Assembly: GCA_964469495.1 (NCBI GenBank)
Contig: CAYXYY010000011.1
Span: 30,845-94,844, forward strand
Length of the DNA: 64,000 nucleotides
Origin: an uncultured Planctomycetia bacterium
Lineage (GTDB): Bacteria; Omnitrophota; Gorgyraeia; S143-82
Direction: 5' to 3'
Below the pieces are notes generated by a model. The model was not told where the DNA came from. It saw only the letters and a list, made by a program, of their open reading frames with translations, and made no database searches. This document shows, one piece after another, positions 1,924 through 57,850 of the stretch. The stretch's first letter is position 1, and each line of letters begins with the position of its first letter. Made by a program: the position numbers and the translations under genes.

Positions 1924-4740
1924 ATGGTTTTCAGAAAGGGCGTTTTTATGGGATCTTGTGTGAAAAACGTATTTATACATTCGTTTTGTGTTTTTTTACT
2001 CTTATGTGTTGTTCTGTTTTGCTGTTCGAACGCCTATGCATACGATAGTTTTGATAATCTCAAATACGATATAAAATTTTCTTTTTCTAATACAGGGCAC
2101 TTCATAACGGCAAAAGAAACGATTTCCTTTAATTGTGAAGCGCCTTTGTCTGAGATTCATTTACATTTTTACCCGGCGCATAAATGGTCTGATGAGGAAA
2201 AAGATGCATATGAAAAGTACGGCGGGTATTTTAATATAGATACTCCGTTTCCTGACGGTTTTGACGAAAACAAGGCAGGCGTCAATTTTGTATCTGTAAA
2301 TGGCCGCAGGGCGCAATTTTCCTTAAAAGGCAAGGATCGCACGCTGCTGGTCATTTATCCGGATGCGCCTTTGTCAGGAAGTATTGTGCTGGATATAGAT
2401 TTTGAATTTTATGTGCCCAAGCGAATAGGCCGATTTGGAAGAAACAACGGTGTCTATAGTATTTACAGGGCATATCCGATTTTAGACGTAATGAAAGACG
2501 GAAAGTGGCTTGATTATCCCGATTACTTATTGTATCAGCCTTATGTAAGCCAATCGGCATTGTACGACGTGGCGATTGAGCTCCCAGAGTCCTTTGTGCT
2601 GGCGGCTAGCGGACAGGCCGTTGCATCTGAAAAAAGGCGCGGCAGTGTTTTATACAAGATATCTTCCGATAAACCCTTAAGGGATTTTTCTTTCTTTTTC
2701 AGCAAAAAATACCGTGTCTATACCAAGAACGTTGATGGTATAGATATTAAGGTCTATTATCTGCCTTCTGCCCCTTTTGATGCCGTGATGAATATATCAA
2801 AGTTTATAGAGGATGAGCTGATGTTTTATAAGGGGTATGGGTTTGAGTATCCGTATGGGCAAATATCCGTTGTGCCTGTTTATTTAGGTTATGGAGGCAA
2901 TGAGACCTCAAACGTCGTTATGCTTGACCGCAGGGTCCTTTTTATACCGAATGTTGCCAAGAGATATCAGGAGTTTTTGGCAGTGCATGAATTTGGCCAT
3001 CAGTTTTGGTTTAATCAGGTGGGTTCCGACGAATATGCAGAGCCGTTTGTTGATGAGGCCGTAAACTCCTATTTTGTGCAAAAATATCTTGAAGAGAAGT
3101 ATGGACACAACTGCAATGTCCTGACTTGGCCATGGCCATTGGATTTGTTTATGCCGAATTTTACCTTTCTCAACGGGACAACAGTAAGGTATAGATATCT
3201 TGCAAGGCGGGGAATAGATCTTCCTGTTTTGATGCAGGCCAATAAGATGAATGAACCCGATATGATTTTTGCGTTTGCATATGGAAAAGGTGAGGCCTTA
3301 TTCGAGACGATGGAACACAGCATAGGCAAAAAGGCGACGATGTCTATCTTTAAAGACTACTTTAAAAGATATAGATTTGCAATAGCAGATGTTAACGCAT
3401 TAGAAGATGTTTTCTCCCGGCATTTGGATAACATGAAACTTGATGCCAGTGATAGATTTGCCTCAGTGTTGAGGGATAAAGGAATTGATTTTTATGCCAA
3501 GAAGACAAGAAACGGATTTCGAATATTGGAAAGATCAGAGACACTTGAACGGGTAAAGGTGCGATATCGTTTAAACAGGCAGTGGCTTATGACAGATGTG
3601 AAAAGCGGAGATGTCTTGCATGCCGATAAGATTGTTATAGACCCGGATGATGAAGTCTTAGAAACGGACGAGGCAAACAATGTGTATCCTGTTTATGATA
3701 ATGTCGATTTTAAGCTAAAACCGTTGAACCTGCCTTTTTATTCAATGGATATCTTTAATACACAAAAGAGATTGACTGCTGACGTGGGATTTAATCTTTC
3801 AGAATTTGGCCCCGGGGTGCGGTTTAATTTGCACTATCCTTTTGTATATGATCTTGCATTAGGAGGGTATATAGATACTGCGCAGGATGAGAGGTCTATA
3901 ACCTCATCTTTTAGATTGCACGGGATTGACGAGACTTTGTGGGAAATGGCCTTGGAATATGCCTATAGGGATGATTATTCAGAGTATGACGAAAACAGTG
4001 AGGAGATAAGATTGTCTTTTTCTCTGCCTTTGCAGGCTCCCAGTTTTAGGCTCGGAAAAACAGACGATTTCTTTGAGTTATATATGGCGAAAAACAGAGA
4101 ATGGTTTTCCCAGATAGATGGTATGTTCGATAAGGTGGTTTCAAGTGTTTATTACGATGTCCAAGATCTGTTCTATGTTGGGTTTGGTATCCAGCGGTCT
4201 GTGGCAGAGGACTTTCTTATAAGGGCGTACTATGAATCAGGATTTGATAAACTAGGGGCGGATTTTTCATTCAATAGACTGTATTGCGAATCCATATACG
4301 GGTTTAAGTATAGGGATCTTGATTTCTCTGCGCGCGTTGGTTTGGGCCTATCTGATGCGGATAACAAACCCATGTTTTTTGCGGGAGGCAGCAATGGATT
4401 GCGGGCATATCGCAGAAAGGCAATAAGGGGAGGGAATCTGGCCTTGTTTTCAGTGCAGGCCTTCAAAAATATTTATGAAGCGGATGATAGTCTTGCGAGG
4501 CAAAACGGATATGTATCTGTTTCACACATAAAAACAGGCGTGTTTTTTGACGTTGGCAAGGTGTGGCAGGATTCCATGTCAGAAAACAGGTGGAAGAAGG
4601 ATATTGGTATCGGATTTAGGGTAGGCCTTAATTTCGGCGCATTGGCATCAAGCGCGGATTTGCGTCTGGATTTTGCCAATTCCATTGGTGAAGATGACGA
4701 TGAGTCCCGTATTGTCATTGGTTTTGGAAGCCGTTTTTAG
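1924..4740 (+). CDS. Secreted M1-like (gluzincin) zinc metallopeptidase domain fused to a C-terminal outer-membrane beta-barrel, giving a type-V/autotransporter-like architecture
   Basis: An N-terminal signal peptide is present. HEFGHQ...(19 aa)...E has HEXXH-X18/19-E spacing like M1 aminopeptidases. The C-terminal ~350 aa are rich in alternating aromatic/hydrophobic residues and end ...RIVIGFGSRF. A terminal Phe is the OMP beta-barrel signature. Confidence 0.6.
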   Translation: MVFRKGVFMGSCVKNVFIHSFCVFLLLCVVLFCCSNAYAYDSFDNLKYDIKFSFSNTGHFITAKETISFNCEAPLSEIHLHFYPAHKWSDEEKDAYEKYGGYFNIDTPFPDGFDENKAGVNFVSVNGRRAQFSLKGKDRTLLVIYPDAPLSGSIVLDIDFEFYVPKRIGRFGRNNGVYSIYRAYPILDVMKDGKWLDYPDYLLYQPYVSQSALYDVAIELPESFVLAASGQAVASEKRRGSVLYKISSDKPLRDFSFFFSKKYRVYTKNVDGIDIKVYYLPSAPFDAVMNISKFIEDELMFYKGYGFEYPYGQISVVPVYLGYGGNETSNVVMLDRRVLFIPNVAKRYQEFLAVHEFGHQFWFNQVGSDEYAEPFVDEAVNSYFVQKYLEEKYGHNCNVLTWPWPLDLFMPNFTFLNGTTVRYRYLARRGIDLPVLMQANKMNEPDMIFAFAYGKGEALFETMEHSIGKKATMSIFKDYFKRYRFAIADVNALEDVFSRHLDNMKLDASDRFASVLRDKGIDFYAKKTRNGFRILERSETLERVKVRYRLNRQWLMTDVKSGDVLHADKIVIDPDDEVLETDEANNVYPVYDNVDFKLKPLNLPFYSMDIFNTQKRLTADVGFNLSEFGPGVRFNLHYPFVYDLALGGYIDTAQDERSITSSFRLHGIDETLWEMALEYAYRDDYSEYDENSEEIRLSFSLPLQAPSFRLGKTDDFFELYMAKNREWFSQIDGMFDKVVSSVYYDVQDLFYVGFGIQRSVAEDFLIRAYYESGFDKLGADFSFNRLYCESIYGFKYRDLDFSARVGLGLSDADNKPMFFAGGSNGLRAYRRKAIRGGNLALFSVQAFKNIYEADDSLARQNGYVSVSHIKTGVFFDVGKVWQDSMSENRWKKDIGIGFRVGLNFGALASSADLRLDFANSIGEDDDESRIVIGFGSRF

Positions 4741-6408: not shown

Positions 6409-6699
6409 ATGCGAAGAAAGCGATATCCTGTGTTGGAGCAGATAGATCCCGACGCACCGGTGTATGTGATTAGTGTGGTTAGCAGTATGGTTGGTCTGCC
6501 CCAGTGGACGTTAAGGGCATTGGATAGAGAAGGGATTGTATGCGCAAAGAGGAGCAATGGTTCTAATGGCAGGAGGGTGTATTGTTTTAAAGATATAAAG
6601 AAACTGGAATACGTGCGTTACCTTATGCAGGAAAGAGGGGTTAACCTTGAAGGCATAAAGGTAATTTTAGAGATAAAGGAGGATGATAGCAATGCTTAA
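6409..6699 (+). CDS. hspR: MerR-family heat-shock repressor HspR
   Basis: A 96-aa MerR-type HTH protein ([26 protein letters not shown]) sits directly upstream of and overlapping clpB. That is the classical HspR context. Confidence 0.75.
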
Positions 6700-9289
6700 T
6701 ATGGATAAATTTACTATAAAGGCCCAAGAGGCTATTCAATCTGCTTTGCAGCAGGCCCAATCCAAAGGCCATCAGGAATTGGGTGTGGAGCATCTTGCTC
6801 TTGCCCTGCTTACTCAGGAAGAGGGGATCGTGCCTGCTGTGCTTTCTAAGATGGGGATTTCTGTGAAACCTGTTGTTGCTGATGTTGATGCCCTGCTTGA
6901 GAAAAGGCCGCAGGTTCAAGGTACCGGCGGCAATGTTTATATGTCCGGTGAACTTAATACCGTGCTTGCGGATTGTGAAAAACAAGCGGCTCAATTAAAG
7001 GATTCTTATATAAGCACAGAACATTTGTTTTTGTCTTTGCTTAATTTGCCTGTTTCAAGCGGGCTTGTAAATGCATTTGCAAAGTATGGACTAAACAAAG
7101 ATGCCTTTTTAAAGGCATTGATGGATTTGCGTGGCGGGCAGAACGTATCCGACCAGAATCCTGAAGATAAGTTTGATGCTTTATCAAAATATGGCAGGGA
7201 CCTGACTGCATTGGCAAGGGCAGGCAAATTGGATCCTGTTATAGGCCGTGATGAGGAGATAAGGCGTGTGATACAGGTCTTATCCAGAAGGACAAAGAAT
7301 AATCCGGTATTGATAGGAGAACCCGGTGTTGGTAAGACGGCAATTGTGGAAGGTATTGCCCGCAGGATTGTTTCAGGAGATGTGCCAGAGGGGCTTAAAA
7401 ATAAGCGGTTAATCGCACTTGATATAGGTTCATTATTGGCTGGCGCAAAATACAGAGGTGAATTCGAGGACAGATTAAAGGCGGTATTAAAGGAGATAGA
7501 ATCCAAGGAAGGCCAAATTATACTTTTTATTGATGAAATACATACCCTTGTTGGCGCAGGGAAGGCCGATGGCGCTATAGATGCCGCCAATATGTTGAAG
7601 CCGGCTTTAGCAAGAGGAACTTTGCGTTGTATAGGCGCTACTACTTTGGATGAATATAGAAAGTATATAGAAAAGGATGCCGCTCTTGAAAGGCGGTTTC
7701 AACAGGTACTGGTAAAGGAGCCTTCAGTTGAAGATACTATTGCGATCTTAAGGGGATTGAAAGAAAGATATGAGGTGCATCACGGAGTTCGGATAAAGGA
7801 TTCTGCTTTGATTGCCGCGGCTGTGCTTTCTCATAGGTATATATCCGGCAGGTTTTTGCCTGATAAGGCAATAGATTTGATTGATGAGGCGGCTTCTAAA
7901 CTGCGTATAGAAATAGACAGCCGTCCTCAAGAGATTGATGAGCTGGAACGCAGGATCTTGCAGCTTGAAATAGAAAAACAGGCCTTGAAAAAGGAAACGG
8001 ATGCGGCATCAAAGGAGCGTTTGCAGAATATAGAAAAGGAATTGGCCCAGTTGAAAGAGCGTTCCGCCCAGTTGACTGCAAAATGGCAGGCGGAAAAGGC
8101 CATTATTATGGAAATTCGAAAGATAAAGGAAGAAATAGACGTCTTGCGCAATGAAGAGGCCTTGGCGCAAAGACGCGGGGAGCTTGAAAAGGCCGCTGAG
8201 ATTAGGTATGGGAAGATCCCTGCTCTTGAAGAGAAAATGCAACAGCAAAACAAGAGATTAGAGGAGATGAAAGAGAGTGGAAAACTCCTGCTCAAAGAAG
8301 AGGTTGATGATGAGGACATAGCTGCTATTGTTGCAAAGTGGACGGGCATTCCTGTTTCCCGTTTGATGGAAGGAGAAGCAGAGAAATTGGTGCATATGGA
8401 AGACCGCCTTAAACAGCGCATTATAGGCCAAGACGAGGCCGTTGCCCTTATATCATCTGCTATTAGGCGGGCGCGTGCCGGCATATCTGATCCAAACAGG
8501 CCGATAGGCTCTTTCTTGTTTATAGGTCCGACAGGTGTTGGAAAGACGGAGCTTGCCCGGTCTTTGGCAGACTTTTTGTTTAACGACGAGAAAGATATGA
8601 TAAGGATAGATATGTCAGAGTATATGGAAAAACATAGCGTCTCGCGGCTTATAGGAGCGCCTCCCGGTTATGTTGGATACGACGAGGGCGGCCAGCTTAC
8701 AGAACAGGTTCGCAGAAGGCCGTATTCTGTTGTATTGTTTGATGAAATTGAAAAGGCGCATCCTGACGTGTTTAATGTGCTTTTGCAGATAATGGATGAA
8801 GGCCGTTTGACAGATGGACAAGGCCATATAGTCAATTTCAAAAACACGGTTATCATTATGACGTCTAATATAGGCAGTGAGTATTTTAATGAAGATATGC
8901 CTTTGGATAAGGTGAAAGAGAATATACATCGGCAATTACGGTCTCGTTTTAAGCCTGAGTTCTTAAACAGAATAGACGAGATAGTGATATTTAATAAACT
9001 TTCGACGGAAGATATCGTTAAGATAGCCGAAATCCAGTTTGCTTATCTGCAAAAGAGGTTGTCTGATAGGAAGATAACTTTGGTAATAGACGAGGACGTT
9101 AAACGGTATATTGCCGAAGTTGGATATGATGTTAATTATGGGGCAAGGCCGCTGAAACGCGCAGTGCAGAGATTGTTGTCCGACAAACTGGCTTTGCTCA
9201 TTTTAGAGGGAAAGATAAAAGGAGGAGATCTCGTAAAGGCGACGCTTGGCCCTGACAAGGAAATAGAGTTTAGCGTTGAAAAACAATAA
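6683..9289 (+). CDS. clpB: ATP-dependent disaggregase ClpB
   Basis: It has the ClpB N-domain, two AAA+ modules ([13 protein letters not shown]...; [11 protein letters not shown]), a long coiled-coil M-domain, and is about 860 aa. Confidence 0.95.
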
Positions 9290-9299
9290 GGAGGCGAAT

Positions 9300-9632
9300 A
9301 TGTTTCAAATGGCGTTTCATTTTAAGGACATAGAATCTGATTGGGAAAACAGGCTCAAGGATATATTTGAAAAGGAAAGAGATGTTGTTATAAAGAAACA
9401 CCTTGGCCGTTTGGCGGATAAAAAGGTTTATTTTCATATAACAGTTGAGAAAAATCCGCATAAAAACGAATATATCGTTGGTATTGCCTTGTATCTGCCT
9501 TCTAAGAGTTTGTATGCCAGACGCAAGAGTAAGGCTGCGGATGTTGCGATGAATGCCGCAATAAATAGCCTTGTCAGGCAAGTGGATAAATACAGAGATA
9601 AGTTTATCCACAAGAAGGGAGCAAGGAGGTAA
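9300..9632 (+). CDS. hpf: Ribosome hibernation-promoting factor / RaiA (YfiA) family protein, short form
   Basis: The segment ...HITVEKNPHKNEYIVGIALYLPSKSLYARRKSKAADVAMNAAINSLVRQVDKYRDK... aligns with the YfiA/HPF pattern. A strong SD (AAGGAGG) lies 5 nt upstream of the ATG at 9300. The listed 9276 start lies inside clpB. Confidence 0.55.
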   Translation: MFQMAFHFKDIESDWENRLKDIFEKERDVVIKKHLGRLADKKVYFHITVEKNPHKNEYIVGIALYLPSKSLYARRKSKAADVAMNAAINSLVRQVDKYRDKFIHKKGARR

Positions 9633-9635
9633 TAG

Positions 9636-10367
9636 ATGAGTCCTAGGGAAGCAAAGGTTAAAAAAGACGAGGTTTTGGCAATGATTGTCGAGGCCTATTT
9701 TGAAACAGGTGCGCCTGTTTCCTCGATGGCTTTGGTGGAACGGGGCATGAAATGTTCCTCTGCGACTATAAGGAATATTATGGCTGAATTTATTGACGAA
9801 GGATTTCTGGCTCAGCCACATACGTCTGCTGGGCGGATTCCTACTGCCAAGGCTTATAGGTATTATTTGGATTTTCTTATGGAAAGGGCGCATGAGGATT
9901 TGGAATCTGATCTGCCGAACTTTGCTTCCCGGACGGCCTCATTAGATGGATTGATTAAACATATTGCCGATTCAGTTTCAGAGTTGATGCATCAAACCGG
10001 GATGAGCGCATTTTGGGGGCATAGAGACGTGTATCTGCATGGAAGAAACTATCTGATTGATTATTCGGAACTTCAGGATATAGACAAGCTCAGAGAGATA
10101 TTTACTTTTTTGGAGGATGAGCAATCCGTACACGAGATTTTATGGCGGGATATAAAAGACCGCGTAAATGTTTTCGTGGGCAATGAGATTGGAAGGCCGG
10201 AAGTTTCAGAGTGTTCCTTGATTATCTCTGCCTGTGACGTTGGCGATGGCAAGGAAATAAGGATAGGCATTATAGGGCCTATGAGAATGGATTATGGCCG
10301 CAACCTGAGTCTTCTGGAAAGGTTATCTGAGGAGGTGGAGGGTATATGCAAAAGAATAGCCCTATGA
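9636..10367 (+). CDS. hrcA: Heat-inducible transcription repressor HrcA (short, about 243 aa)
   Basis: The N-terminus ...SSMALVERGMKCSSATIRNIMAEFIDEGFLAQPHTSAGRIPTAKAYRYY is the diagnostic HrcA winged-helix segment. The C-terminus has ...IGIIGPMRMDYGRNLSLLE. It is followed by grpE-dnaK-dnaJ. Confidence 0.8.
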   Translation: MSPREAKVKKDEVLAMIVEAYFETGAPVSSMALVERGMKCSSATIRNIMAEFIDEGFLAQPHTSAGRIPTAKAYRYYLDFLMERAHEDLESDLPNFASRTASLDGLIKHIADSVSELMHQTGMSAFWGHRDVYLHGRNYLIDYSELQDIDKLREIFTFLEDEQSVHEILWRDIKDRVNVFVGNEIGRPEVSECSLIISACDVGDGKEIRIGIIGPMRMDYGRNLSLLERLSEEVEGICKRIAL

Positions 10368-10918
10368 AAGAAGACAAGAGAGAGGATGAAGTTGTTATGA
10401 AAAAAGATAATGAATCTGTTTCTATATCTCGCGAGGAATATGAGGAATTGTTAAAGGCCCGTGATGAGAGAAAGGAGTGGCAGGAACTTGCCGCGCGCAT
10501 AAAAGCGGATTATGAAAATGCGCGTAAACGCCTTGAGAGAGAAAAGGAAGAGTTTATAAGATTTGCGCAATATAACGTGCTTAAGGATTTGCTTTCAGTG
10601 GTGGATGACTTTGAACGGGCGCGTTCCGCGGCAGTTGAAACGCAGGACATAGAGAGTCTGGTAAAAGGTTTGGATATGATTGGAAAGGATCTTCAATCTC
10701 TTTTAAAACGCTATGGCGTTGAAGAAATAGATGCTCATGGGAGAAAATTTGACCCGGAGTTGCACGAAGCCATGTTGCAGGAGGAGACTGAAGATGCTGA
10801 GCCGTTTACTGTTTTGGAAGTTCTTCAAAAGGGATATAAGATGCACGATAAGGTCTTAAGGCCGGTTCGTGTAAAGGTTAGTGTGGCAGCTTCTGAGGAA
10901 GAAGCAGGTGAAAAATAA
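10346..10918 (+). CDS. grpE: Nucleotide exchange factor GrpE
   Basis: The coiled-coil N-terminus and C-terminal GrpE fold motifs (...FIRFAQYNVLKDLLSVVDDFERA...GVEEIDAHGRKFDPELHEAM...) sit between hrcA and dnaK. Confidence 0.9.
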   Translation: MQKNSPMKEDKREDEVVMKKDNESVSISREEYEELLKARDERKEWQELAARIKADYENARKRLEREKEEFIRFAQYNVLKDLLSVVDDFERARSAAVETQDIESLVKGLDMIGKDLQSLLKRYGVEEIDAHGRKFDPELHEAMLQEETEDAEPFTVLEVLQKGYKMHDKVLRPVRVKVSVAASEEEAGEK

Positions 10919-10952
10919 ACTTTGAGGATAATTTTTAAGGAGGTGTTGTGTT

Positions 10953-12827
10953 ATGGCAAAGGCAATAGGAATTGACTTAGGTACATCTAATTCTGCAGCA
11001 GCAATTATGGAAGGAGGACAACCCAAAATCATTCCTTCCGCAGAGGGGACAACTGTAGGTGGAGGGAAGGCTTTTCCTTCCTACGTGGCTTTTACCAAGG
11101 ATGGACAATTATTGGTTGGAGAGCCTGCAAGGCGTCAGGCGGCAATCAATCCGGAAGGGACTATAACTCGTGCAAAGAGGTATATGGGGACGGACCATAA
11201 ATTTAATATCTATGGCAAAGAATATACTCCTCAACAGATCTCTGCATTCATCTTGCAGAAAATCAAAAAGGACGCAGAGGCCTATCTTGGAGAACCTGTT
11301 ACAGAGGCGGTGATAACAGTTCCCGCTTATTTCAATGACAACCAAAGACAGGCCACTAAAGACGCGGGCGAGATAGCCGGCCTAAAGGTCCTAAGGATTA
11401 TAAACGAACCTACGGCTGCATGTCTTGCGTTTGGATTGGATAAACTTGACAAGAATTTAAAAATTCTCGTCTTTGATTTGGGCGGAGGCACGTTGGACGT
11501 TACTATAATGGAGATGTCCAATGGTGTTTTTGAGGTCCTTTCTACGAGTGGAGATACGCAGCTTGGCGGTACGGATATGGACATCGTTTTGGCAGATTAT
11601 ATTGTTGCCGAGTTTAAGAAAAAGGAAGGTGTTGATTTAAAGCAGGATAAGATGGCGTGGCAGAGGATTGTTGAGGCCGCAGAGAAGGCAAAGATAGAGC
11701 TCTCTTCAACGCTTGAAACAGATATCAATCTGCCGTTTATTACAGCAGACGCATCCGGGCCAAAGCACCTGACGATGACGATTAACAGGGCCAAATTAGA
11801 GGAATTGGTTTCTCCTATCGTTGATAGGTGTAAGGCCCCTATCGAGCGCGCTGTTAAGGATGCAGGCCTTGGGATAGACGGCATCGACAAGATTATCATG
11901 GTTGGCGGGCCTACACGTATGCCTATTGTGCAGAAGGTAGTCGAGGATTACGTCGGTAAAAAGATAGAACGCGGAATAGATCCTATGGAATGTGTTGCTA
12001 TGGGCGCGAGCATACAGGCAGCTGTTTTAAAAGGAGAGGTAAAAGACGTCTTGCTTTTGGATGTAACACCCCTATCTTTGGGTATAGAAACTATGGGAGG
12101 AGTTTTTACGAAGATAATAGAGCGCAATACCACTATACCTACTAAAAAGAGCCAGATATTTACTACCGCTGAGGATAATCAAAGCGCGGTAACCATTAGG
12201 GTTCTGCAGGGAGAAAGGCCTATGGCCAATGACAATGTGGAACTTGGCAGGTTTGATCTGGTTGGTATTCCGCCTGCTCCGCGGGGGGTCCCCAAGATAG
12301 AGGTTACGTTTGACATAGATTCCGATGGCATTGTTCATGTCTCTGCCAAAGACGTGGCAACAGGCAAGGAGCAGTCCATTAGGATTACTGCGCCGAATAA
12401 ACTCTCCAAGGAGGATATTGACCGTATGGTCAAGGAAGCTGATCAGTTTGCAGAGGCTGACAGAAAGCGCAAAGAGGAAGTTGAGTTAAAAAATCAGGCT
12501 GATCAGCTCGTTTATACTACAGAGAAGGCATTGAAAGATGTCGGAGATAAGATCAGTGCTGAAGAAAAGGCAAAGGTGGAAGGGCATCTGCTTGAACTCA
12601 AGAATGCCATAAAAGGCGGTTCCATAGATGAAATAAAACAAAAGATGGATACGCTTATGCAGGCCTCTCACAAGTTAGCTGAGGAGATGTATAAAAAGGC
12701 TCAAGCTGAGTCAGCCTCTTCTGATGCCTCCGCAGAGCCTCAAACCGGCGCAACTGCGGAAGAGACAGGCAGCAATGACTCTGAAAAGGGAGACGATGTG
12801 ATAGATGCTGAGTTTAAGGAAGAGTAA
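10953..12827 (+). CDS. dnaK: Molecular chaperone DnaK (Hsp70)
   Basis: [27 protein letters not shown] and the Hsp70 C-terminal lid are present. It is about 624 aa, with a small insertion after the first beta-hairpin ([27 protein letters not shown]). Confidence 0.97.
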
Positions 12828-12852
12828 TCTCTTTGCGGGCATTGCATAAATA

Positions 12853-12878
12853 GCAGGCGCAGTTTTCCCTGCGCCTGC
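12853..12878 (+). terminator. GC-rich 10-bp perfect hairpin (GCAGGCGCAG-ttttcc-CTGCGCCTGC) between dnaK and dnaJ with no downstream U-tract. It is probably a partial terminator or mRNA-stability hairpin setting the dnaK:dnaJ ratio.
   Basis: The inverted repeat was read directly. It lies 26 nt after the dnaK stop. Confidence 0.4.
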
Positions 12879-12903
12879 ACAATTATATTAAGGAGTTTTG
12901 TGT

Positions 12904-14055
12904 ATGGCAGAAAACAAGGATTATTACAGAATATTGGGAGTAGACAGAAACGCAACGCCTGAGCAGATAAAGGCTGCTTACAGGAAACTGGCTATGCAAT
13001 TTCATCCGGATAGAAATCCGGAAGACAAAAAAGCCGCTGAAGAAAAGTTTAAGGAGATATCAGAGGCCTATGAGGTCTTGAGCGATGAGAAAAAACGCAA
13101 ATTATATGACCAGTATGGATATGAAGCAATGAAGCAGTCTTTTGGAGAGGGCGGATTTAACTGGTCTAATTTTTCACATTATCAGGATTTAGAGGATATA
13201 TTTGGGGATTTCGGATTAGACGATTTGTTGAGAGGATTTGGTTTCGGAGATGTATTTGGCGGTTATGGCCGTTCGTCTGGCCGTAGTAGAAGGGGAAGGG
13301 ATCAGGAGATAGAGGTAAGGATTTCTTTAAAAGAGGCCTATATGGGTGTTAATAAAACAATAACAATTAGACGTACGGAAACGTGTCCTGAATGCAATGG
13401 TTCAGGAAGCGCAAAAGGAAGCGCCCCTGTTGTCTGTCCGCAATGTAAGGGCAGAGGAGCTGTTGTGCAAAGGGCAGGCTTTTTTACTATGCAGACGACT
13501 TGTCCGCGTTGCGGCGGTAAGGGACAGGTTATTAATAATCCCTGTCCAAATTGTCGAGGGACAGGCAAGGTTATGGCAACGAAGAAGATTACAGTAAAGA
13601 TCCCGGCTGGCATAGAGGATGGCACTCATCTCAGGCTTGCAGGTGAAGGTGAGCAGGTTTCCGGCGGGCGGCACGGAGATCTCTATGTATTGGTAAGGGT
13701 GATGCCGGATAAAACCTTTGCGCGCAAAGGCAAAGATATATATACGAAGGCAAAGATATCTATGTATCAGGCAGCATTGGGCACAGAGATAGAGGTGCCT
13801 ACTCTTGCTGGCAAAGTGAATATGCGTGTGCCTGCGGGAGTACAGCCCGGGGCAAAATTGCGCTTAAAGGGAAAGGGTATGCCTGTTTTGCGAGGCAGTG
13901 GTTATGGCGATGAATTTGTTGAAATAATCGTACAAGTTCCGAAAGGCTTGTCTCAGAAGGAGCGTTCATTGCTTGAACAAATAGCGCAAATGAAAGGGGA
14001 GCCCTTTCTGACAGAAGAAGGCTTAAGCGACAAAATAAAGAGATTTTTCTCTTAA
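12904..14055 (+). CDS. dnaJ: Co-chaperone DnaJ (type I, with CxxCxGxG zinc-finger repeats)
   Basis: The J-domain (YYRILGV...HPDRN), a G/F region, four CxxCxG repeats and the C-terminal domain are present. An SD (AAGGAG) lies 8 nt upstream of the ATG at 12904. Confidence 0.95.
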
Positions 14056-16516: not shown

Positions 16517-17695
16517 ATGTTTAAAGATTGGCCATTACTTATCGCCATTGCATTGGCGTTCATCGCAACCTTTTCTATTTATCAGTATATGAAGACACAA
16601 CAGGAGAAAATGCAGTACCAAATAAAAGCGGCTATAGAAAAAGAAAGACAAAAATTAGAGAATGAATATAAAAAAAATATGGCCCATGTGAAAGGGCAGA
16701 GAGGTAGAGGCATAAATGTGGTTGTCGCTAAAAAAGATATTCCAGCCGGAGATGTAATTACGTCTGAAATGGTAGAATTAAGGAAAGTTCCATCATCAGT
16801 CAAAGCGCCTATGAGCGCAGGGACGTTAGATGCGGTTATAGGAAAGATGGCAAAACAGGATATCTTGGTAGGGGAACAGGTAATGCTTAACAGGGTTATT
16901 TCTCTAAAGGCTCAAAAGGGCGCTATTATCAATCCCGGGACTAGGCTTGTCACTATACAGGTGGAACAATTGGACTTGTTTAGGTTTTTAAGGCCGGGAG
17001 ACCACGTTGATATTGCCTTGATGTTCCAATTGCCGCAGTCGCAAGCGGTAACAACAGGCCTTTTCCCAGATGTCGAAATAAAGGCCATTAATGGCAGAAT
17101 CTCGTATTCTTCGCTGTTTCGAACATCTGCGCCTGCGCAGGACAAATCCAATAGAACAATTAAAAAGAGGGTCGATAATAATGCTAAAAAAACAGGGATT
17201 AGTATAGATCCTAACAAAGGGACATTGTCTTTCTCTCTGCCGCCTAAAGAGGCAGCGATTCTCTTGATGGCATCAAAACTGGGCAAGATAGAGATATATC
17301 CAAGATCTAGTCTTGATCCGGACAAGACAAAGATACCGCCGATTACTGCGGATGCTGTTTTGCAGTTCGCCCTGCCAAATATAATGGCAAAGGCCAAGAA
17401 TAATGCTGCTGTGGCGGGCCAAAAAAAGGAACAAAAGGTTGAAAAAGAACCGGAGCATGAAGCGCCAATAACCACAAGAAAGGTCAAAATAAGAAAAGGG
17501 TCTGCGGTTCAGTGGGTAGAGATTGGCGAAGAAGGTATTATCCAGGATGAGGATAAACCAAAAAAAGAGATTTCCGGGAATGTTGATAAGCAAGGGAGAG
17601 ATGGGAAGGATGCAAAGGATATAGATGAACAGAAAACGGTTGTTGATAATAGTGAGGAGGACTTACAGAAAGAAGGTGTTGTGAATGAGGTATAA
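16517..17695 (+). CDS. cpaB: Flp/Tad pilus assembly protein CpaB (RcpC), with an N-terminal TM and a SAF domain
   Basis: An N-terminal TM helix is followed by VVVAKKDIPAGDVITSEMVELRKVP...VIGKMAKQDILVGEQVM, a SAF/CpaB pattern. It sits directly upstream of a CpaC-type secretin. Confidence 0.65.
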   Translation: MFKDWPLLIAIALAFIATFSIYQYMKTQQEKMQYQIKAAIEKERQKLENEYKKNMAHVKGQRGRGINVVVAKKDIPAGDVITSEMVELRKVPSSVKAPMSAGTLDAVIGKMAKQDILVGEQVMLNRVISLKAQKGAIINPGTRLVTIQVEQLDLFRFLRPGDHVDIALMFQLPQSQAVTTGLFPDVEIKAINGRISYSSLFRTSAPAQDKSNRTIKKRVDNNAKKTGISIDPNKGTLSFSLPPKEAAILLMASKLGKIEIYPRSSLDPDKTKIPPITADAVLQFALPNIMAKAKNNAAVAGQKKEQKVEKEPEHEAPITTRKVKIRKGSAVQWVEIGEEGIIQDEDKPKKEISGNVDKQGRDGKDAKDIDEQKTVVDNSEEDLQKEGVVNEV

Positions 17696-19244
17696 TCTGT
17701 TATTTTCCGCTTTTATATTTTTAGTGTGTTTTTCTTCTCTTTCTTCTGATGCAGAGACAAATGTATATTTAAAGGCAGGCGATACAAAGGTTTTGCCGTG
17801 TCCTTCATGTCAAGAGGTCTCTATAGATAATCCTAATATCGCAGATGTTACGACTGATGGGGATTCTGTTATTGTTAGCGCTGTCAGCCCGGGTATTACT
17901 GCATTGGAATACGTCTCTGGGAGCGGGAAAAAGGATTATAAAGTAGTTGTTTGGGAAGATAACGTTCCATTTGTGGCAAATCAGGTGAGGTCTTTGCTTA
18001 AGGTTCTAAATTTATCGAATAACATTTCCGTAGGCGAAGATAAGCTGGCAGGCAAGGTTTATCTCTTGGGAGAGATATCAGGTGAAGAAAAACAAAAGGC
18101 TTTGGATAATGTGCTTCAGGCCTGTCCTTCGCCTGTAATAGTCAATCTGGTAAAAGTTAAAGACCAGCATGAGGTTATTGAAGTAAAGGTCAATGTTGCA
18201 GAGATAAGCAAGTCCGATCTGGATCAATTGGGGATAGCTTGGCCATCTTCTATATCTCTTATAGCAAGTGAAGATGTTCCCTCTGAATCAGGCGAAGAGT
18301 CCAATGGAAAGTCATTGGGCGATGCCCTTAAATTCAATAAATGGACGCGCAATGATGCTACGTGGATGCTGTCGATGTTAGAACAACAAAGCAAGGGCAA
18401 GATTTTGGCCAGTCCATCGATATTGGCAACCAGCGGCAAAGAAGCCTCTATTTTGGTTGGAGGAGAGATCCCGATTTTGATGTATGACGATGATGAACCC
18501 AAAGTCGAGTTCAGGCCATACGGCATTATTCTAAACATATTGCCGTCTATTATAGAAGGGAATAAGATAGATGTTAATTTGGAATGCGAGGTCAGTGAAA
18601 TAGACTGGACCAATTCTGTCAATGTTACATTGGCCGGAGACGACGATGACCAAAGGTTTAATGTGCCGGCCTTTACAAAGCGGAACGCCAAAACAGAGGT
18701 GATTTTAAACAACGGAGAAAGTATTATAATGGGGGGATTGTTAAAGAACACTGATACAAAAATAACATCAGGAGTGCCTGGTTTGAGTAAACTCCCTGTT
18801 TTGGGCGCTTTATTTTCCTCTAAAGATTTTCAGAAGGGTAAGACAGAGCTTATTATTACACTAACGCCCAAGATCAAGAAAGGCAATGATTCTACTCCAG
18901 CAGAAAATCTAAATCAATTGGGAGGCCTGCAAAATATAACTCTGAATAGTGATAAATCGCCGCTGCAAAGATATAAAGAGATGCTATTGAATACGATTAC
19001 CAAATCCTTTTATTACCCGGATTACGTGAAAGACAAGAAGTTGTCGGGTACTGTTTTATTAACATTACATATTGCAAGATCGGGCAGGGTGTTGGGTGTT
19101 AGAGTCAAATCGTCTTCAGGCAGCAAGGTTCTTGACAGGCTTGCAATTATGTTAATTCGAGATATTGGTTTATTTCCTCCATTTCCCGGGGATCTAAACC
19201 TAGAGGATTTGTGGATAGATATTCCTATTATATATCAGGCATGA
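17685..19244 (+). CDS. cpaC: CpaC/RcpA-type secretin with an extra C-terminal TonB_C-like domain
   Basis: It has a signal peptide, a secretin N-domain, and the secretin core (ILASPSILATSGKEASILVGGEIP...). The last ~90 aa (YPDYVKDKKLSGTVLLTLHIARSGRVLGVRVKSSSGSKVLDRLAIMLIRDIGLFPPFP) match the TonB C-terminal domain pattern. Confidence 0.75.
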   Translation: MRYNLLFSAFIFLVCFSSLSSDAETNVYLKAGDTKVLPCPSCQEVSIDNPNIADVTTDGDSVIVSAVSPGITALEYVSGSGKKDYKVVVWEDNVPFVANQVRSLLKVLNLSNNISVGEDKLAGKVYLLGEISGEEKQKALDNVLQACPSPVIVNLVKVKDQHEVIEVKVNVAEISKSDLDQLGIAWPSSISLIASEDVPSESGEESNGKSLGDALKFNKWTRNDATWMLSMLEQQSKGKILASPSILATSGKEASILVGGEIPILMYDDDEPKVEFRPYGIILNILPSIIEGNKIDVNLECEVSEIDWTNSVNVTLAGDDDDQRFNVPAFTKRNAKTEVILNNGESIIMGGLLKNTDTKITSGVPGLSKLPVLGALFSSKDFQKGKTELIITLTPKIKKGNDSTPAENLNQLGGLQNITLNSDKSPLQRYKEMLLNTITKSFYYPDYVKDKKLSGTVLLTLHIARSGRVLGVRVKSSSGSKVLDRLAIMLIRDIGLFPPFPGDLNLEDLWIDIPIIYQA

Positions 19245-19263
19245 GCTTATTTAGGGGCGCATA

Positions 19264-21474
19264 ATGGGCAGGGCAATAGTTTTTTTTAGCCCCAAAGGCG
19301 GTGTTGGAAATACCTTTCTTGCCACAAATCTTGCTATTGCTTTGCAGCAAAGGGCATATAAGGTCTTGTTGTTGGATGCGGCTTTCCCAATTGCCGGCGA
19401 TGTGGCAAGGTTGTTAAGCATATTCCCAAAACAGAGTATTCTGGATATCTTCTTCTCCGGTTATACTATCCCTTATGACAATCCGCAAATTATGTCCGAG
19501 TTCCTTGCAGATTATGTGACAAAGCATGATGTTGGTGTGGATGTCTTGCCTGCAATAATCAGCCCCGGCGAGATGAAGCATATCAGTGATATCAATCCCA
19601 GTTTATTTATGAGGAGCATTAGTGATATTTACGATTTTGTTATTGTTGATGCAGGAAAGGTCTTTTCATCTTTTTTAGTAAAGTTGTTGGACAATGCGAA
19701 CCTGGTGTTGAGTGTGGTTGTCCCGGATATACTCTCCGTTTATCAGACGAAGGCGGCATTCGGCACTTTTCAGGATCTGTTTTTCCCAAAGGAGATGTTT
19801 AAACTTATATTGAACAGGGCGGAAAGCAAAGGCGGTGTTGGCATAGCAGAAGTGAAAACCGTTTTGCCGCTGGACATTATAGCTAAAATTCCGAGTGAAG
19901 GCAGGCCGGTAGGACATTCTGTTAATTTTGGTGTGCCTGTTCTGTTGGAAGAACCGAATTCCCGCGTAAGCAGCGCAATCAGGGCATTGGCAGAGAATCT
20001 GCTGGAGCCCCATATTTACATAGATAAACTCCCTATTGATGAGTTGAAAAACAGAAGAAAGGAATCCAAACATGATGTATTGGTGTCCTTTTGGGAGGAT
20101 TACGGATTAGGCGTAGAGAAAAAACAAGTGGAGAGGATAGACGAACTTGTTCTATTAAAAAAACGGGTACATAGGAAGTTGATTGATAGGGTGGAGACAA
20201 AGAAATTTGACTTTTTTAATATGACAAGAGACGAGAGGAATAAGATAAGGCAGGATACAGAGAGGATTATAGGAGAGCTATTAAGCGAAGAGACAGGGGC
20301 ATTGGTTGATGATTATGAAAAGAGAAAAATTTTAGTCAAAGAAATAGCTGACGAGGCTCTTGGGCTCGGGCCGTTAGAGGACCTGTTAAAGGACCCGGAT
20401 ATCACGGATATTATGGTTAACAACAAGGAACAGATTTTTGTTGAAAAATTTGGAAAGCTGCAGTTAACTGACAAGAAATTTATCTCTAACGAACATGTTA
20501 TTCAAACTATAGAACGTATTATCTCTCCTCTTGGCAGGAGAATAGACGAATCAGTGCCTATGGTAGATGCAAGGCTTCCGGACGGCAGCAGGGTGAATGC
20601 CATAATACCTCCATTGGCGTTGAACGGCCCAATGCTTACGATTAGAAAGTTTGGAAGGGAGCAATTTATTGCAGATGATTTGGTAAAATTCGGGAGTATC
20701 ACACAAGATATAGCCGAATTTTTAAAGGCGTGTATTGTAAGCAGGAAAAATATCATAGTATCAGGAGGCACCGGTTCTGGTAAGACCACAGTATTGAATG
20801 CCTTTTCGCAATATATCCCGTCAAAGGAAAGGATTGTGACGATAGAGGATGCCGCTGAACTTCGTTTAAATCAAGAACATTGGATTAGGCTGGAATCAAG
20901 GCCTCCAAACATAGAAGGCAAGGGGCAGATAACTATAAGGGATTTGTTTAGGAACACGCTTCGTATGCGGCCTGACAGGATAATTATCGGTGAGTGCCGC
21001 GGACTAGAGGCATTGGATATGCTTCAGGCAATGAACACAGGCCATGACGGGTCATTGACAACTATCCACGCAAATTCAACGCAAGATGTTATCTCTAGGC
21101 TTGATTCTATGATCTTAATGAGCGGCATAGAACTGCCTGTAAGAACGATTCGTGAGATGGTTGCTTCGGCCATAGACATCATTGTGCATACGGCAAGGTT
21201 AAGCGATGGTTCAAGAAAGGTGATACAGATTACAGAGGTAATTGGCATGTCGGATGACATGATTAACCTAAATATGAAAGATATATTTGTCTTTGTTCAA
21301 AAAGGTGTGGATGAAAAGGGCAAGATCTTGGGAGAATTTTCTGCCACAGGATATATCCCGTCTTTTTATGAAGAATTGGGCCGTATGGGAATAAAGTTGA
21401 GTGAGGGGATGTTTGAGCCAAGGCAAGTATATTATGATATTGTTAAACAAGACAAAAAGCAAGAAACTCACTGA
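19264..21474 (+). CDS. cpaF: Fusion of a CpaE/TadZ-like ParA/MinD-family domain (degenerate Walker A, KGGVGNT) to a CpaF/TadA VirB11-family secretion ATPase
   Basis: The N-terminal ~250 aa have a deviant Walker A (SPKGGVGNTFLATNLA) where N replaces the usual K. The C-terminal half has Walker A GGTGSGKTT, Asp/His boxes (DRIIIGECRG, GHDGSLTTIHANS) and the CpaF signature. Confidence 0.8.
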   Translation: MGRAIVFFSPKGGVGNTFLATNLAIALQQRAYKVLLLDAAFPIAGDVARLLSIFPKQSILDIFFSGYTIPYDNPQIMSEFLADYVTKHDVGVDVLPAIISPGEMKHISDINPSLFMRSISDIYDFVIVDAGKVFSSFLVKLLDNANLVLSVVVPDILSVYQTKAAFGTFQDLFFPKEMFKLILNRAESKGGVGIAEVKTVLPLDIIAKIPSEGRPVGHSVNFGVPVLLEEPNSRVSSAIRALAENLLEPHIYIDKLPIDELKNRRKESKHDVLVSFWEDYGLGVEKKQVERIDELVLLKKRVHRKLIDRVETKKFDFFNMTRDERNKIRQDTERIIGELLSEETGALVDDYEKRKILVKEIADEALGLGPLEDLLKDPDITDIMVNNKEQIFVEKFGKLQLTDKKFISNEHVIQTIERIISPLGRRIDESVPMVDARLPDGSRVNAIIPPLALNGPMLTIRKFGREQFIADDLVKFGSITQDIAEFLKACIVSRKNIIVSGGTGSGKTTVLNAFSQYIPSKERIVTIEDAAELRLNQEHWIRLESRPPNIEGKGQITIRDLFRNTLRMRPDRIIIGECRGLEALDMLQAMNTGHDGSLTTIHANSTQDVISRLDSMILMSGIELPVRTIREMVASAIDIIVHTARLSDGSRKVIQITEVIGMSDDMINLNMKDIFVFVQKGVDEKGKILGEFSATGYIPSFYEELGRMGIKLSEGMFEPRQVYYDIVKQDKKQETH

Positions 21475-35557: not shown

Positions 35558-36082
35558 CTTAACCCCCTTTGTCGTCTGTCCTTAACTTGCCCCTTTTGGC
35601 TATAAGTTAGAATAAAACCATGCTTCCCAAGGGCCCTCCTTTTTAGTATCCTCTTCCTCACCTCCTTTCTTGCCAAGTGGCAATAAAAAAACCTGTCCGG
35701 CAGCCAAAACGCCAAACAGGTTTTCTATAATAGCCGGCAACTGGCTGCCCAGTTCTTGTCCCCCCTCAGGAACAAGCCTTGGGGCCCTATAGCTTTGCGC
35801 CCCCGCCTTTCGGCGGGTTTGCCCTTTTCGGTTAGAAAAGCCATAATTTCAAAGAGCACCTTTCTTCCTGCATACATAACTATATCTTATCCCCCTGTTT
35901 TGTCAACTTTTTATTTTTGCCCCCAAACCAAAATGCATAACCATTTGTCAAAAACCCATTTATAAAGTATAGCACATGTATGGATAAAGGCAAGTTTATT
36001 TGTCTGTTGATTTTAGCGGCCATGTATGATACTTTATCCCAAGTATTTATTTGCAAATCCGTTTAAATAGGAGGTTTTTACG

Positions 36083-57464: not shown

Positions 57465-57850
57465 AATTTTTCTCTTTGATAAAAATCTAAAAAATTCTCT
57501 AATGCGTTTTTTCTCTCCTTGATTCTTTCGACCCATGCTTTAAGCAGTCTTCTGCCATGAGGAGTGATTTGATAGACCCTTTTTCTTCTTGAACCCTTTG
57601 TTTTCCATGAAGATTTTACAAGGAATTCTTTTTCCATCTTTCTCAATATCCGATACACTGATCCTATATCAATGTTTTTTTTATGAAAGCCAAGGAGTTT
57701 TAATTTATCGATCAATTCATAACCGTGAGACGGCTTCTTTGACAAAAACAAGAGTAGACCGGGCTGAATAAATCTTGAAACTCTACGCAGGGAAAAATTG
57801 CAGCCCTTTTCTTTTTCATCCAATTTTTCCCCTAATTCTTTTGATTTCAT
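57461..57850 (-). CDS. PadR-family transcriptional regulator, the first gene of the efflux operon
   Basis: ...PGLLLFLSKKPSHGYELIDKL...GSVYRILRKMEKEFLV...RKRVYQITPHGRRLL is the PadR wHTH signature. An SD (AGGAGA) precedes the internal ATG at 57850, which is preferred over the 57877 start. Confidence 0.75.
   Translation of the reverse strand: MKSKELGEKLDEKEKGCNFSLRRVSRFIQPGLLLFLSKKPSHGYELIDKLKLLGFHKKNIDIGSVYRILRKMEKEFLVKSSWKTKGSRRKRVYQITPHGRRLLKAWVERIKERKNALENFLDFYQREKL

Follow-up and report, generated by a model that had tools for sequence, protein, structure and literature searches.

To our knowledge, all Omp85 proteins that have been studied assemble or translocate proteins. PlpD has recently shown a further use of the Omp85 scaffold, as the mere carrier of an enzyme in the periplasm: its enzyme domain was demonstrated experimentally in 2024 to stay in the periplasm (PMC11116518). 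In PlpD and FplA ("type Vd"), a hydrolytic enzyme at the N-terminus and a 16-stranded BamA/TamA-type Omp85 barrel at the C-terminus belong to one polypeptide, and the protein described here is predicted to have the same plan. The enzyme of PlpD and FplA is a patatin lipase, and the described type Vd passengers are all lipases (PMC6555100), whereas in our protein no patatin domain was found and the enzyme is an M1 zinc peptidase. Furthermore, PlpD-like type Vd proteins carry a single POTRA domain between the enzyme and the barrel, whereas none is present here.

POTRA-less Omp85 barrels, as found here, also characterize the "Metallo" and "noNterm" subfamilies (Heinz and Lithgow 2014, PMC4104836). 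Since such subfamilies are recognized, the lack of a POTRA domain is compatible with membership of the Omp85 superfamily. "Metallo" proteins resemble our protein further in having a non-POTRA enzyme domain at the N-terminus, for which the same question of a periplasmic or a surface location was raised (PMC4104836); however, that domain is PF00149 rather than Peptidase_M1 (PF01433). None of the ten Omp85 subfamilies of the 2014 classification is an M1 fusion (PMC4104836), and our searches of the open-access literature yielded no description of an M1-Omp85 fusion.

Domain organization of the fusion protein

The stretch of DNA that we analysed (the window, 64,000 nt) contains a complete gene whose product, judged from its sequence, is probably an active M1-type zinc peptidase joined to a 16-stranded outer-membrane barrel of the Omp85 (BamA/TamA) type. 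Direct reading of the sequence confirmed the exported protein of 938 aa proposed in the initial annotation, and the features identified in it are listed in the table. The N-terminus consists of basic residues, a hydrophobic run (VFIHSFCVFLLLCVVLFCC), AYA, and then YD; residues 13-36 form a low-pLDDT helix in the AF2 model, and A39, the small residue preceding the mature start, is conserved in the family alignment. The signal peptide noted earlier thus appears to be of the Sec type. The full-length AF2 model had a pLDDT of 81.8 and a pTM of 0.82. Profile searches of the protein also returned CARDB and HipA matches, which were dismissed as weak and under their cut-offs.

Features of the M1-Omp85 fusion gene, with nucleotide positions in the window
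Feature	Residues (aa)	Position (nt)	Strand	Basis
Complete M1 peptidase-Omp85 fusion gene	938 aa	1924..4740	+	ATG start; stop codon counted in
Predicted Sec signal peptide (...SNAYA/YD)	1-39	1924..2040	+	Read from sequence
M1 domain I, N-terminal beta saddle	~44-280	2053..2763	+	All-beta in AF2; Foldseek alignment; borders approximate
M1 domain II, catalytic, thermolysin-like	~281-515	2764..3468	+	PF01433 match; family profile against PDB M1 enzymes
GGNET, at the site of the GAMEN exopeptidase motif of M1 enzymes	324-328	2893..2907	+	Profile alignment
HEFGH, zinc-binding/catalytic motif	355-359	2986..3000	+	H355, E356 and H359 invariant in 28 family members
E378, third zinc ligand	378	3055..3057	+	Invariant in 28 members; aligned with the NEG Glu of M1 enzymes
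Y453 in YGKG, corresponding to the catalytic Tyr (Y-x-K-G) of M1 enzymes	453	3280..3282	+	Aligned with SYSKGS of M1 aminopeptidases
Domain III, small beta sandwich	~516-580	3469..3663	+	AF2 strands 523-572; within Foldseek M1 alignments
Structured linker (36 residues) with extra conserved strand (594-601) preceding barrel strand 1	581-616	3664..3771	+	AF2
Omp85-type 16-stranded outer-membrane beta-barrel	617-938	3772..4737	+	PF01103; Foldseek; barrel profile
LRAY, loop 6 motif, Omp85 (V/L/M)RG(F/Y/W)	826-829	4399..4410	+	Aligned with TamA SIRGY
FFDVG, Omp85 strand-13 FxDxG motif	874-878	4543..4557	+	Aligned with TamA FVDSG
IVIGFGSRF, C-terminal beta-signal with terminal Phe		4711..4737	+	Sequence read; family alignment

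The N-terminal half was assigned to the M1 family. Pfam Peptidase_M1 (PF01433) matched residues 302-500 with E = 6e-10 (39.5 bits; gathering cut-off, 27.7), and the HExxH region aligned to M1 enzymes, in agreement with the exported M1-like gluzincin of the initial annotation. Domains I-III, comprising approximately 590 N-terminal residues, superposed on IRAP, ERAP1/2, APN, and the tricorn factor F3 in Foldseek alignments of about 580-600 columns (E ~1e-21). M1 aminopeptidases in the PDB were also matched by the family profile with E-values down to 2e-22; a single-sequence phmmer search of the PDB gave no match, showing that the family profile was needed. Domain III closes with a conserved DPxxxxLxxDxxNN motif, in which D573 is invariant among the 28 aligned members, and its fold in the AF2 model is not that of a POTRA domain (beta-alpha-alpha-beta-beta). 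In the AF2 model, domain III is followed directly by the barrel, with no sign of the helical domain IV by which M1 enzymes close the catalytic cavity. M1 enzymes with two or three domains exist, such as the 474-aa PDB chain 6a8z, which was matched by the family profile.

E378 lies 19 residues past H359, giving the HEXXH-X18-E spacing that had been pointed out previously. In M1 enzymes, the catalytic Tyr of the Y-x-K-G motif stabilizes the transition state; Y453, G454, K455, and G456 were all invariant in the 28-member alignment. The Glu of the M1 GXMEN motif binds the substrate N-terminus. At this position, GYGGnes of the family profile sits opposite GTGAMEN of glutamyl aminopeptidase (4kx7), and the Glu is kept in the subclade of the window protein but is mostly Gln elsewhere in the family (GG[TN]QS in most members). 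Because this Glu lacks family-wide conservation, exopeptidase activity is uncertain. The invariance of H355, E356, H359, E378, and Y453 in the 28 members suggests that the peptidase is probably catalytically competent; its specificity, whether that of an aminopeptidase or of an endopeptidase, and its physiological substrates we can only infer.

The linker between domain III and the barrel was modelled with a pLDDT of 79-88 in the full-length AF2 model and had a mean conservation of 0.56; its extra strand persisted when the C-terminal part was modelled alone, and could in principle pass through the barrel lumen. Between domain III and this strand, the AF2 model contains no long or pore-spanning helix, having only two helices of four residues each (residues 583-586 and 590-593). 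Neither a Pfam match to POTRA nor, in the AF2 model, a beta-alpha-alpha-beta-beta unit in residues 516-616 was found.

The beta-rich C-terminal third was predicted to form a barrel, in support of the outer-membrane beta-barrel with a terminal-Phe beta-signal that had been proposed. Pfam Omp85 (PF01103) matched residues 679-938 with E = 1.4e-6 (28.5 bits, or 32.3 bits for the barrel alone; cut-off, 24), and matched 12 of 13 barrels from the family, with a best E-value of 1e-18. DSSP assignment of the predicted models gave 16 strands from residue 617 plus one extra strand upstream, deciding for 16 over 12, the alternatives that the initial annotation had left to be checked. The top 50 PDB matches of the C-terminal model in Foldseek consisted entirely of Omp85 barrels and of complexes that contain one, namely BamA/BAM, TamA, and the mitochondrial SAM complex with its Sam50 subunit; the TM-scores against barrel-only chains of TamA were 0.58-0.60, and TamA chains were also matched by the barrel profile at E ~6e-6. 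The barrel is closest to those of TamA and BamA. In loop 6, the family consensus is GLRGY, of which the second Gly is replaced by Ala in the window protein (LRAY); R827 is at least 90% conserved. The same level of conservation applies to the strand-13 motif (F874-F-D876-V-G878; motif definition, PMC11358297) and to the terminal F938, and 74 of the 99 relatives of at least 860 aa end with Phe, Tyr, or Trp.

Distribution and gene neighbourhood

The M1-Omp85 fusion is present in 80 or more genomes at species level, almost all of them from Omnitrophota, and has distant relatives in Gemmataceae. The full-length proteins formed approximately 25 clusters at 50% identity, and with this breadth the fusion is real and selected. 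The identical window protein occurs on three contigs, including in ENA and Logan assemblies, which, together with the full-length homologues in at least 80 genomes, rules out an assembly artefact. Database names have concealed one half or the other of this architecture, "M1 family aminopeptidase" on the one hand and, for fragments, "BamA/TamA family, partial" on the other. A homology search with the barrel alone, limited by its word index, returned mostly fragments of the same family and one POTRA-bearing BamA/TamA-like protein.

Gene-neighbourhood analysis of 84 loci revealed no universal partner gene, and pointed to no substrate or pathway. An upstream HhH-GPD glycosylase gene was common to about 40 of the loci, and a gene for a PilZ-like protein of approximately 650 aa to 37. 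M48 peptidase and DUF3857/transglutaminase genes were also seen near the fusion gene at some loci. The window locus, which contains rsmE, Ham1 / DUF72, and YgjP, has none of these four; thus, we take the recurrent neighbours as lineage synteny rather than functional linkage.

Orientation and role of the peptidase

We consider it reasonably probable (about 60%) that the fusion is a Sec-exported M1 peptidase anchored in the outer membrane by a POTRA-less Omp85 barrel and facing the periplasm. The C-terminal beta-signal would direct BAM-dependent insertion of the barrel, which would then serve as a permanent membrane anchor and hold the peptidase at the periplasmic face of the outer membrane, where the M1 domain may trim or degrade peptides or envelope proteins. 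We infer the periplasmic orientation from the topology, since strand 1 of Omp85 barrels begins on the periplasmic side. With loop 6 set between strands 11 and 12, strand 1 starts at residue 617, and is connected to domain III by the 36-residue structured linker. A periplasmic turn of 13 residues (T3; conservation, 0.67) is, loop 6 aside, the most conserved segment of the barrel outside the strands. Among 45 M1-only relatives of 560-740 aa, 13 had a strongly hydrophobic segment in the last 45 residues, and the listed cases among these read as a transmembrane helix followed by a basic tail. Such an ending suggests a membrane-tethered enzyme that faces the periplasm, in which one anchor has been exchanged for another. 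Outer-membrane-proximal peptide processing is suggested as a conserved trait of Omnitrophota, a phylum that is uncultured and whose physiology is almost unknown.

A bolder proposal, which is conceivable but doubtful, is that the barrel is more than an anchor: it would either export a globular M1 domain without POTRA, defining a new type V subclass, or capture unfolded outer-membrane proteins or beta-signals for its own peptidase, as a self-contained quality-control machine. If true, the export role and the capture-and-feed role alike would be functions not known for the Omp85 scaffold. Export is unlikely on the present evidence. In this case the barrel would move the peptidase to the surface or release it, for extracellular peptide scavenging or for attack on prey or host cells, in the manner of the original type Vd model but with a peptidase as cargo and no POTRA domain. 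An enzyme followed by a C-terminal barrel is the order of an autotransporter, the conserved linker with its extra strand ahead of strand 1 might fill the lumen, type Va aminopeptidase passengers such as AaaA are known (PMC6555100; PMC3426542), and a predatory lifestyle for Omnitrophota is proposed in a preprint (bioRxiv 10.1101/2023.11.21.568195). However, loops 4, 6, and 7 close Omp85 barrels on the outside, and the lid-lock motifs are kept here; the cargo would be a globular zinc enzyme of approximately 540 aa, not a beta-helix, and the M1-only relatives appear to be tethered to the membrane on its periplasmic side. Experiments have refuted secretion by PlpD, and moving a folded domain through was considered energetically unfavourable (PMC11116518). 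With both a POTRA domain and a pore-spanning linker helix missing from the AF2 model, and the PlpD enzyme being periplasmic, the initial suggestion that the barrel displays or secretes the peptidase as its passenger was not supported. A classical type Va autotransporter with a 12-stranded beta-domain, which would fit the order of enzyme and barrel and the terminal Phe and nothing else, can be practically dismissed: no Autotransporter (PF03797) match was obtained at E<=1, no autotransporter barrel was among the top 50 PDB matches of the C-terminal model, and the predicted strand number and signature motifs are those of Omp85. The Pfam search, the Foldseek matches, and the barrel profile alignment thus refute the classical autotransporter barrel that the original wording suggests.

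The capture role, an Omp85-guided protease for quality control or processing, is more improbable than export. A BamA-like strand-1 edge would bind beta-signals or unfolded outer-membrane proteins, which the M1 domain would degrade or trim, one polypeptide thereby playing the part of BepA docked on BAM. This is consistent with the signature motifs of the barrel and its closeness to TamA/BamA, with the action of the metalloprotease BepA at BAM (PMC13478230), and with the periplasmic quality control that Heinz and Lithgow proposed for another enzyme-Omp85 class (PMC4104836). The heat-shock genes clpB and hrcA-grpE-dnaK-dnaJ also follow a few kb downstream of the window gene, but this neighbourhood is not conserved in other family members, and both the lateral gate and substrate binding are hypothetical. 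As a rule, moreover, M1 enzymes are aminopeptidases with short peptides as substrates, and not unfoldases. We regard as very improbable that the protein is the BamA/TamA-type insertase of the organism, in which the M1 domain would serve as a scaffold for substrate binding instead of the POTRA domains. NCBIfam models of TamA and BamA matched weakly at their C-terminal ends, and NCBI labels fragments from the family "BamA/TamA family outer membrane protein, partial"; however, the scores were far under the equivalog cut-offs (TamA NF047950, 20.4 vs 625 bits; BamA TIGR03303, 14.8 vs 297), and the AF2 model has no POTRA domain. Since all of the catalytic residues are invariant, an enzyme is favoured over a scaffold.

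Comparison with known systems

The peptidase half shares the HEXXH-X18-E motif, the YxKG Tyr, and the domain I-II-III fold with M1 aminopeptidases (PepN, APN/CD13, ERAP1/2, IRAP, tricorn factor F3, and LTA4H), although the identity is only 12-14%. It differs from them in its degenerate GAMEN motif (GGNET in the window protein) and in having a membrane barrel after domain III where the active-site-capping helical domain IV would follow. TamA and BamA gave the best sequence and structure matches to the barrel, which has their loop-6 and strand-13 motifs and terminal-Phe beta-signal; our protein differs from both in carrying an enzyme domain, in lacking POTRA domains, and in scoring far below their equivalog cut-offs.

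The Pseudomonas aeruginosa protein AaaA has a 12-stranded beta-domain and a passenger of peptidase family M28. This type Va protein likewise places an aminopeptidase on an outer-membrane barrel, where it serves peptide-nitrogen acquisition (PMC6555100); however, its beta-domain is that of a classical autotransporter, in contrast to the Omp85 barrel and M1 domain found here. By analogy with PlpD, the only enzyme-Omp85 fusion to have been studied, for which periplasmic retention of the enzyme has been shown (PMC11116518), the M1 domain probably stays in the periplasm as well. The M1-Omp85 fusion is a clean test case of whether enzyme-Omp85 fusions secrete their enzyme. With an M1 zinc peptidase as the second enzyme, unrelated to the first, conserved on a POTRA-less Omp85 barrel throughout a phylum, the "enzyme on an Omp85 anchor" known from PlpD would be a recurring design.

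Domain architecture of the fusion protein

Re-reading the sequence reproduced the open reading frame at 1924-4740 on the + strand, which starts with ATG and comprises 938 codons. Its product begins with basic residues, followed by a long hydrophobic stretch and an AYA/YD site, and residues 13-36 form an isolated, low-confidence helix in the AF2 model; this N-terminus therefore looks like a putative Sec signal peptide. The identical protein is present on three contigs (two places are listed, from ENA and Logan assemblies) and full-length homologues occur in many genomes; therefore, the M1-Omp85 fusion is not an artefact of assembly or gene calling.

Pfam assigned Peptidase_M1 to residues 302-500 (39.5 bits; gathering score, 27.7). 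The HEFGH motif that the initial annotation had placed in the N-terminal half, with a Glu 19 residues downstream, was recovered at residues 355-359, with E378 lying 19 residues past H359. About 30 full-length homologues were gathered, and in the alignment of 28 of them (A1), H355, E356, H359, E378, and Y453 (in YGKG) are invariant. The A1 profile matched solved M1 aminopeptidases, with a best E of 2e-22 (glutamyl aminopeptidase, puromycin-sensitive aminopeptidase, tricorn F3, ERAP1/2, APN, and IRAP), which, together with the Pfam score, confirmed that the enzyme is an M1-like gluzincin. The profile alignment pairs HEtgHQW with HELVHQW, YGKG with YSKG, and GYGGnes with GTGAMEN; therefore, GGNET, in which the Glu is kept, is the exopeptidase-motif position of the window protein. 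In A1, the eight members of its subclade carry GGNET or GGNES at this position, and most other family members have Gln (GG[TN]QS). Judged from these residues, strict aminopeptidase activity is plausible for the window protein and not secure as a family-wide property.

The full-length AF2 model built on A1 had a mean pLDDT of 81.8 and a pTM of 0.82. In Foldseek, approximately 580-600 of its columns aligned with IRAP, ERAP1, ERAP2, APN, and tricorn F3 (E ~1e-21; identity, 12-14%), spanning domains I (beta saddle), II (catalytic), and III (small beta sandwich). Unlike canonical M1 enzymes, the protein lacks the helical domain IV; it is a clear M1 family member without that domain, and its N-terminal 580 residues are probably an active M1-type peptidase.

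Pfam also assigned Omp85 (PF01103) to residues 679-938, above the cut-off, and 12 of 13 isolated family barrels matched the same entry (best E, 1e-18); no match to the autotransporter domain PF03797 was found even at E<=1. Against the PDB, the barrel-only profile of the family (A3) matched TamA chains at approximately E=6e-6 and BamA weakly. This alignment placed the family GGedgLraY on TamA GGDRSIRGY, the loop-6 motif, and ffDvGksW on TamA FVDSGEA, the strand-13 FxDxG motif. Omp85 barrels are recognised by this pair of "lid-lock" signatures (PMC11358297), which read LRAY and FFDVG in the window protein. The best 50 PDB matches of a separate AF2 model of residues 511-938 (pLDDT 78.8) were all Omp85 barrels or complexes that contain such barrels, namely BamA/BAM, TamA, and the mitochondrial SAM complex with its Sam50 barrel, with TM-scores of 0.58-0.60 when normalised on TamA barrel-only chains. 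With loop 6 (residues 811-837) taken to connect strands 11 and 12, DSSP gave exactly 11 strands ahead of it (the first at residue 617) and 5 past it, that is, 16 strands in the AF2 model rather than the alternative of 12. Loops 4 and 6 are long, as in other Omp85 proteins, one more conserved strand (residues 594-601) precedes barrel strand 1, and the chain ends in IVIGFGSRF. In the stretch from M1 domain III to the barrel, AF2 showed neither a POTRA fold nor a long helix, and Pfam gave no POTRA match.

The C-terminal third is thus an Omp85 barrel, and the protein is a clear member of the Omp85 superfamily without POTRA. The initial annotation was right that the protein carries its own outer-membrane barrel; the autotransporter type it had assigned is ruled out by the Omp85 profile, motifs, and structure matches and by the absence of PF03797. 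The protein was also considered as the organism's own BamA or TamA and rejected, as its NCBIfam equivalog scores were far under the cut-offs.

Distribution and genomic context

Scanning one genome for each GTDB species gave 89 relatives, and 80 of them were retained; nearly all span query residues ~20-938, and the best match is only 36% identical to the window protein. They are overwhelmingly labelled as Candidatus Omnitrophota/Omnitrophica MAGs, together with some third-party bins labelled Planctomycetales or Planctomycetia and one labelled Deltaproteobacteria. Judged from these nearest relatives, the window's own organism probably belongs to Omnitrophota. An exhaustive profile search gave approximately 25 full-length clusters at 50% identity and thousands of relatives with the M1 part alone (3,176 at E<1e-30). 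More distant M1+Omp85 proteins exist, such as P0070 (982 aa), whose cluster holds a protein from Gemmataceae that is annotated as "M1 family metallopeptidase". Six M1-like relatives of ~880-940 aa (P0078, P0085, P0091, P0095, P0105, and P0125) have a C-terminal extension of ~300 aa with no Pfam match; in the two sequences read, P0078 and P0091, it appears beta-rich, and P0091 ends in GTEIRY. Such extensions may be divergent barrels, and hence further M1-barrel fusions outside the family. At NCBI, full-length members are named "M1 family aminopeptidase" and barrel fragments "BamA/TamA family outer membrane protein, partial".

The gene context is no help in assigning function. The gene is flanked by rsmE and Ham1 on one side and by DUF72 and YgjP-like genes on the other; the heat-shock block downstream (see table) is not a conserved neighbour, and in the other genomes examined the M1-Omp85 gene lies among different genes. 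Clustering of the flanking ORFs of 84 loci revealed an HhH-GPD glycosylase in 40, a ~650-aa PilZ-like protein (weak PilZ match) in 37, an M48 peptidase in 25, and a DUF3857/transglutaminase gene, encoding a ~800-aa TPR-DUF3857-transglutaminase-core protein, in 21. This sharing is sub-clade synteny only, and all four are absent from the window's locus. In approximately 20-40 of the 84 Omnitrophota loci, the PilZ-like, M48, and TPR-DUF3857-transglutaminase genes precede the M1-Omp85 gene (flank clusters 3, 8, and 10), as in homologue loci L003 (1079-5387) and L004 (110-5993); this set may be a cell-envelope gene neighbourhood of one subclade.

Elsewhere in the window, the 1509-aa ORF comprises a complete AcrB-type RND pump and a TolC-like outer membrane factor domain. 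It looks unusual for one predicted polypeptide to contain both an inner-membrane pump and an outer-membrane channel, and a frameshift or read-through is possible. The window has a GC content of ~42%, and its + strand holds most genes and has a very strongly positive GC skew (~+0.2 to +0.26 over most 4-kb windows).

Features of the window other than the M1-Omp85 gene
Feature	Position	Strand	Details
Compact heat-shock block	6409-14055	+	MerR-family regulator, ClpB, HrcA, GrpE, DnaK, DnaJ; a few kb downstream of the M1-Omp85 gene
Tad/Flp-like pilus cluster	16517-21474	+	Fused components
RcpC/CpaB-like	16517-17695	+	Pilus cluster
Secretin with C-terminal TonB_C domain	17685-19244	+	Pilus cluster
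ParA/CbiA-like domain fused to T2SSE ATPase	19264-21474	+	Pilus cluster
Long ORF, 515 aa	21763-23310	+	No Pfam family at E<=1e-5
Long ORF, 1037 aa	23983-27096	-	No Pfam family at E<=1e-5
Long ORF, 567 aa	32924-34627	-	Next long ORF downstream of the riboswitch on the same strand; no Pfam match
c-di-GMP-I-GGC riboswitch aptamer	35732-35832	-	Rfam RF03167, 67 bits vs gathering score 59
RND pump + OMF ORF, 1509 aa	51863-56392	-	ACR_tran aa 5-1025, E=1e-207; OEP from aa 1079, E=1e-44
HlyD-type adaptor gene	56379-57536	-	Adjoins the 1509-aa ORF

Location and proposed role of the peptidase

In every known Omp85 protein, the chain enters strand 1 from the periplasm, and loops 4, 6, and 7 cap the barrel on the outside. 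The window protein keeps the motifs that lock loop 6, and its linker from M1 to the barrel is only 36 residues long, structured (pLDDT 79-88), and non-helical in the AF2 model; both features favour a periplasmic enzyme. Type Vd is the only "fused Omp85" class of secretion system, and the patatin domain of its prototype, PlpD, was shown in 2024 to stay periplasmic; the authors of that study considered it energetically implausible for a globular domain to pass through a barrel of this kind once folded (PMC11116518). The reading of the peptidase as a passenger displayed or secreted through its own barrel is unsupported and probably wrong. True surface display would draw on the extra strand at residues 594-601, which could be a lumen-crossing element, on the enzyme-then-barrel order, which is that of autotransporters, and on the existence of aminopeptidase autotransporters such as AaaA (type Va; PMC6555100); set against the retained locking motifs, the linker, and PlpD, it appears unlikely. 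We estimate the probability of a periplasmic M1 domain, the quality-control variant described below included, at about 0.6 to 0.7. By the strand-numbering topology, loop 6 is the only non-strand segment of the barrel that is better conserved than the unusually long, 13-residue periplasmic turn 3, a ranking weakly consistent with a functional periplasmic face.

M1-only relatives that end just past the domain-III DPxxxxLxxDxxNN often carry a hydrophobic TM helix with a basic tail, or an amphipathic helix; a strongly hydrophobic C-terminal segment was found in 13 of 45 relatives of 560-740 aa. Such ends were seen in P0031-P0040, P0121, P0141, P0145, P0158, P0171, and P0182, an amphipathic example being FWLQNLLTWVG. 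The TM helix with a basic tail is the predicted topology of a periplasm-facing enzyme tethered to the inner membrane, and in the Omp85 version this anchor seems to have been exchanged, which carries the same enzyme to the outer membrane. From these C-termini, exported M1-like peptidases seem to form a wider family whose membrane anchors are interchangeable.

In the most economical mechanism, the protein would be exported by Sec, its barrel would be inserted in a BAM-dependent manner via the terminal-Phe beta-signal, and the active zinc peptidase, permanently tethered under the outer membrane, would there trim peptides that are imported or derived from the envelope. The barrel may also have a role that is more specific and more novel: it would recognise outer-membrane proteins in their unfolded state and pass them to the peptidase, by analogy with BepA, which is reported to act at BAM (PMC13478230).

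We found no description of an M1-Omp85 fusion in the open-access, full-text literature searched, and the combination is, as far as that literature shows, an undescribed architecture. A 2014 survey of Omp85/TpsB proteins distinguished ten subfamilies (BamA, BamA-like, TamA, Lipo, patatin-like, WD40, "Metallo", noNterm, FhaC, and Hmw1B), of which the "Metallo" class carries PF00149 rather than an M1 domain (PMC4104836). All described type Vd passengers are lipases joined via one POTRA domain (PMC6555100). The M1-Omp85 fusion overturns nothing; with PlpD as its closest counterpart in concept, it provides a conserved, phylum-wide, and experimentally tractable second case in which an Omp85 scaffold carries an enzyme, just as the role of enzyme-Omp85 fusions in secretion has been newly questioned.
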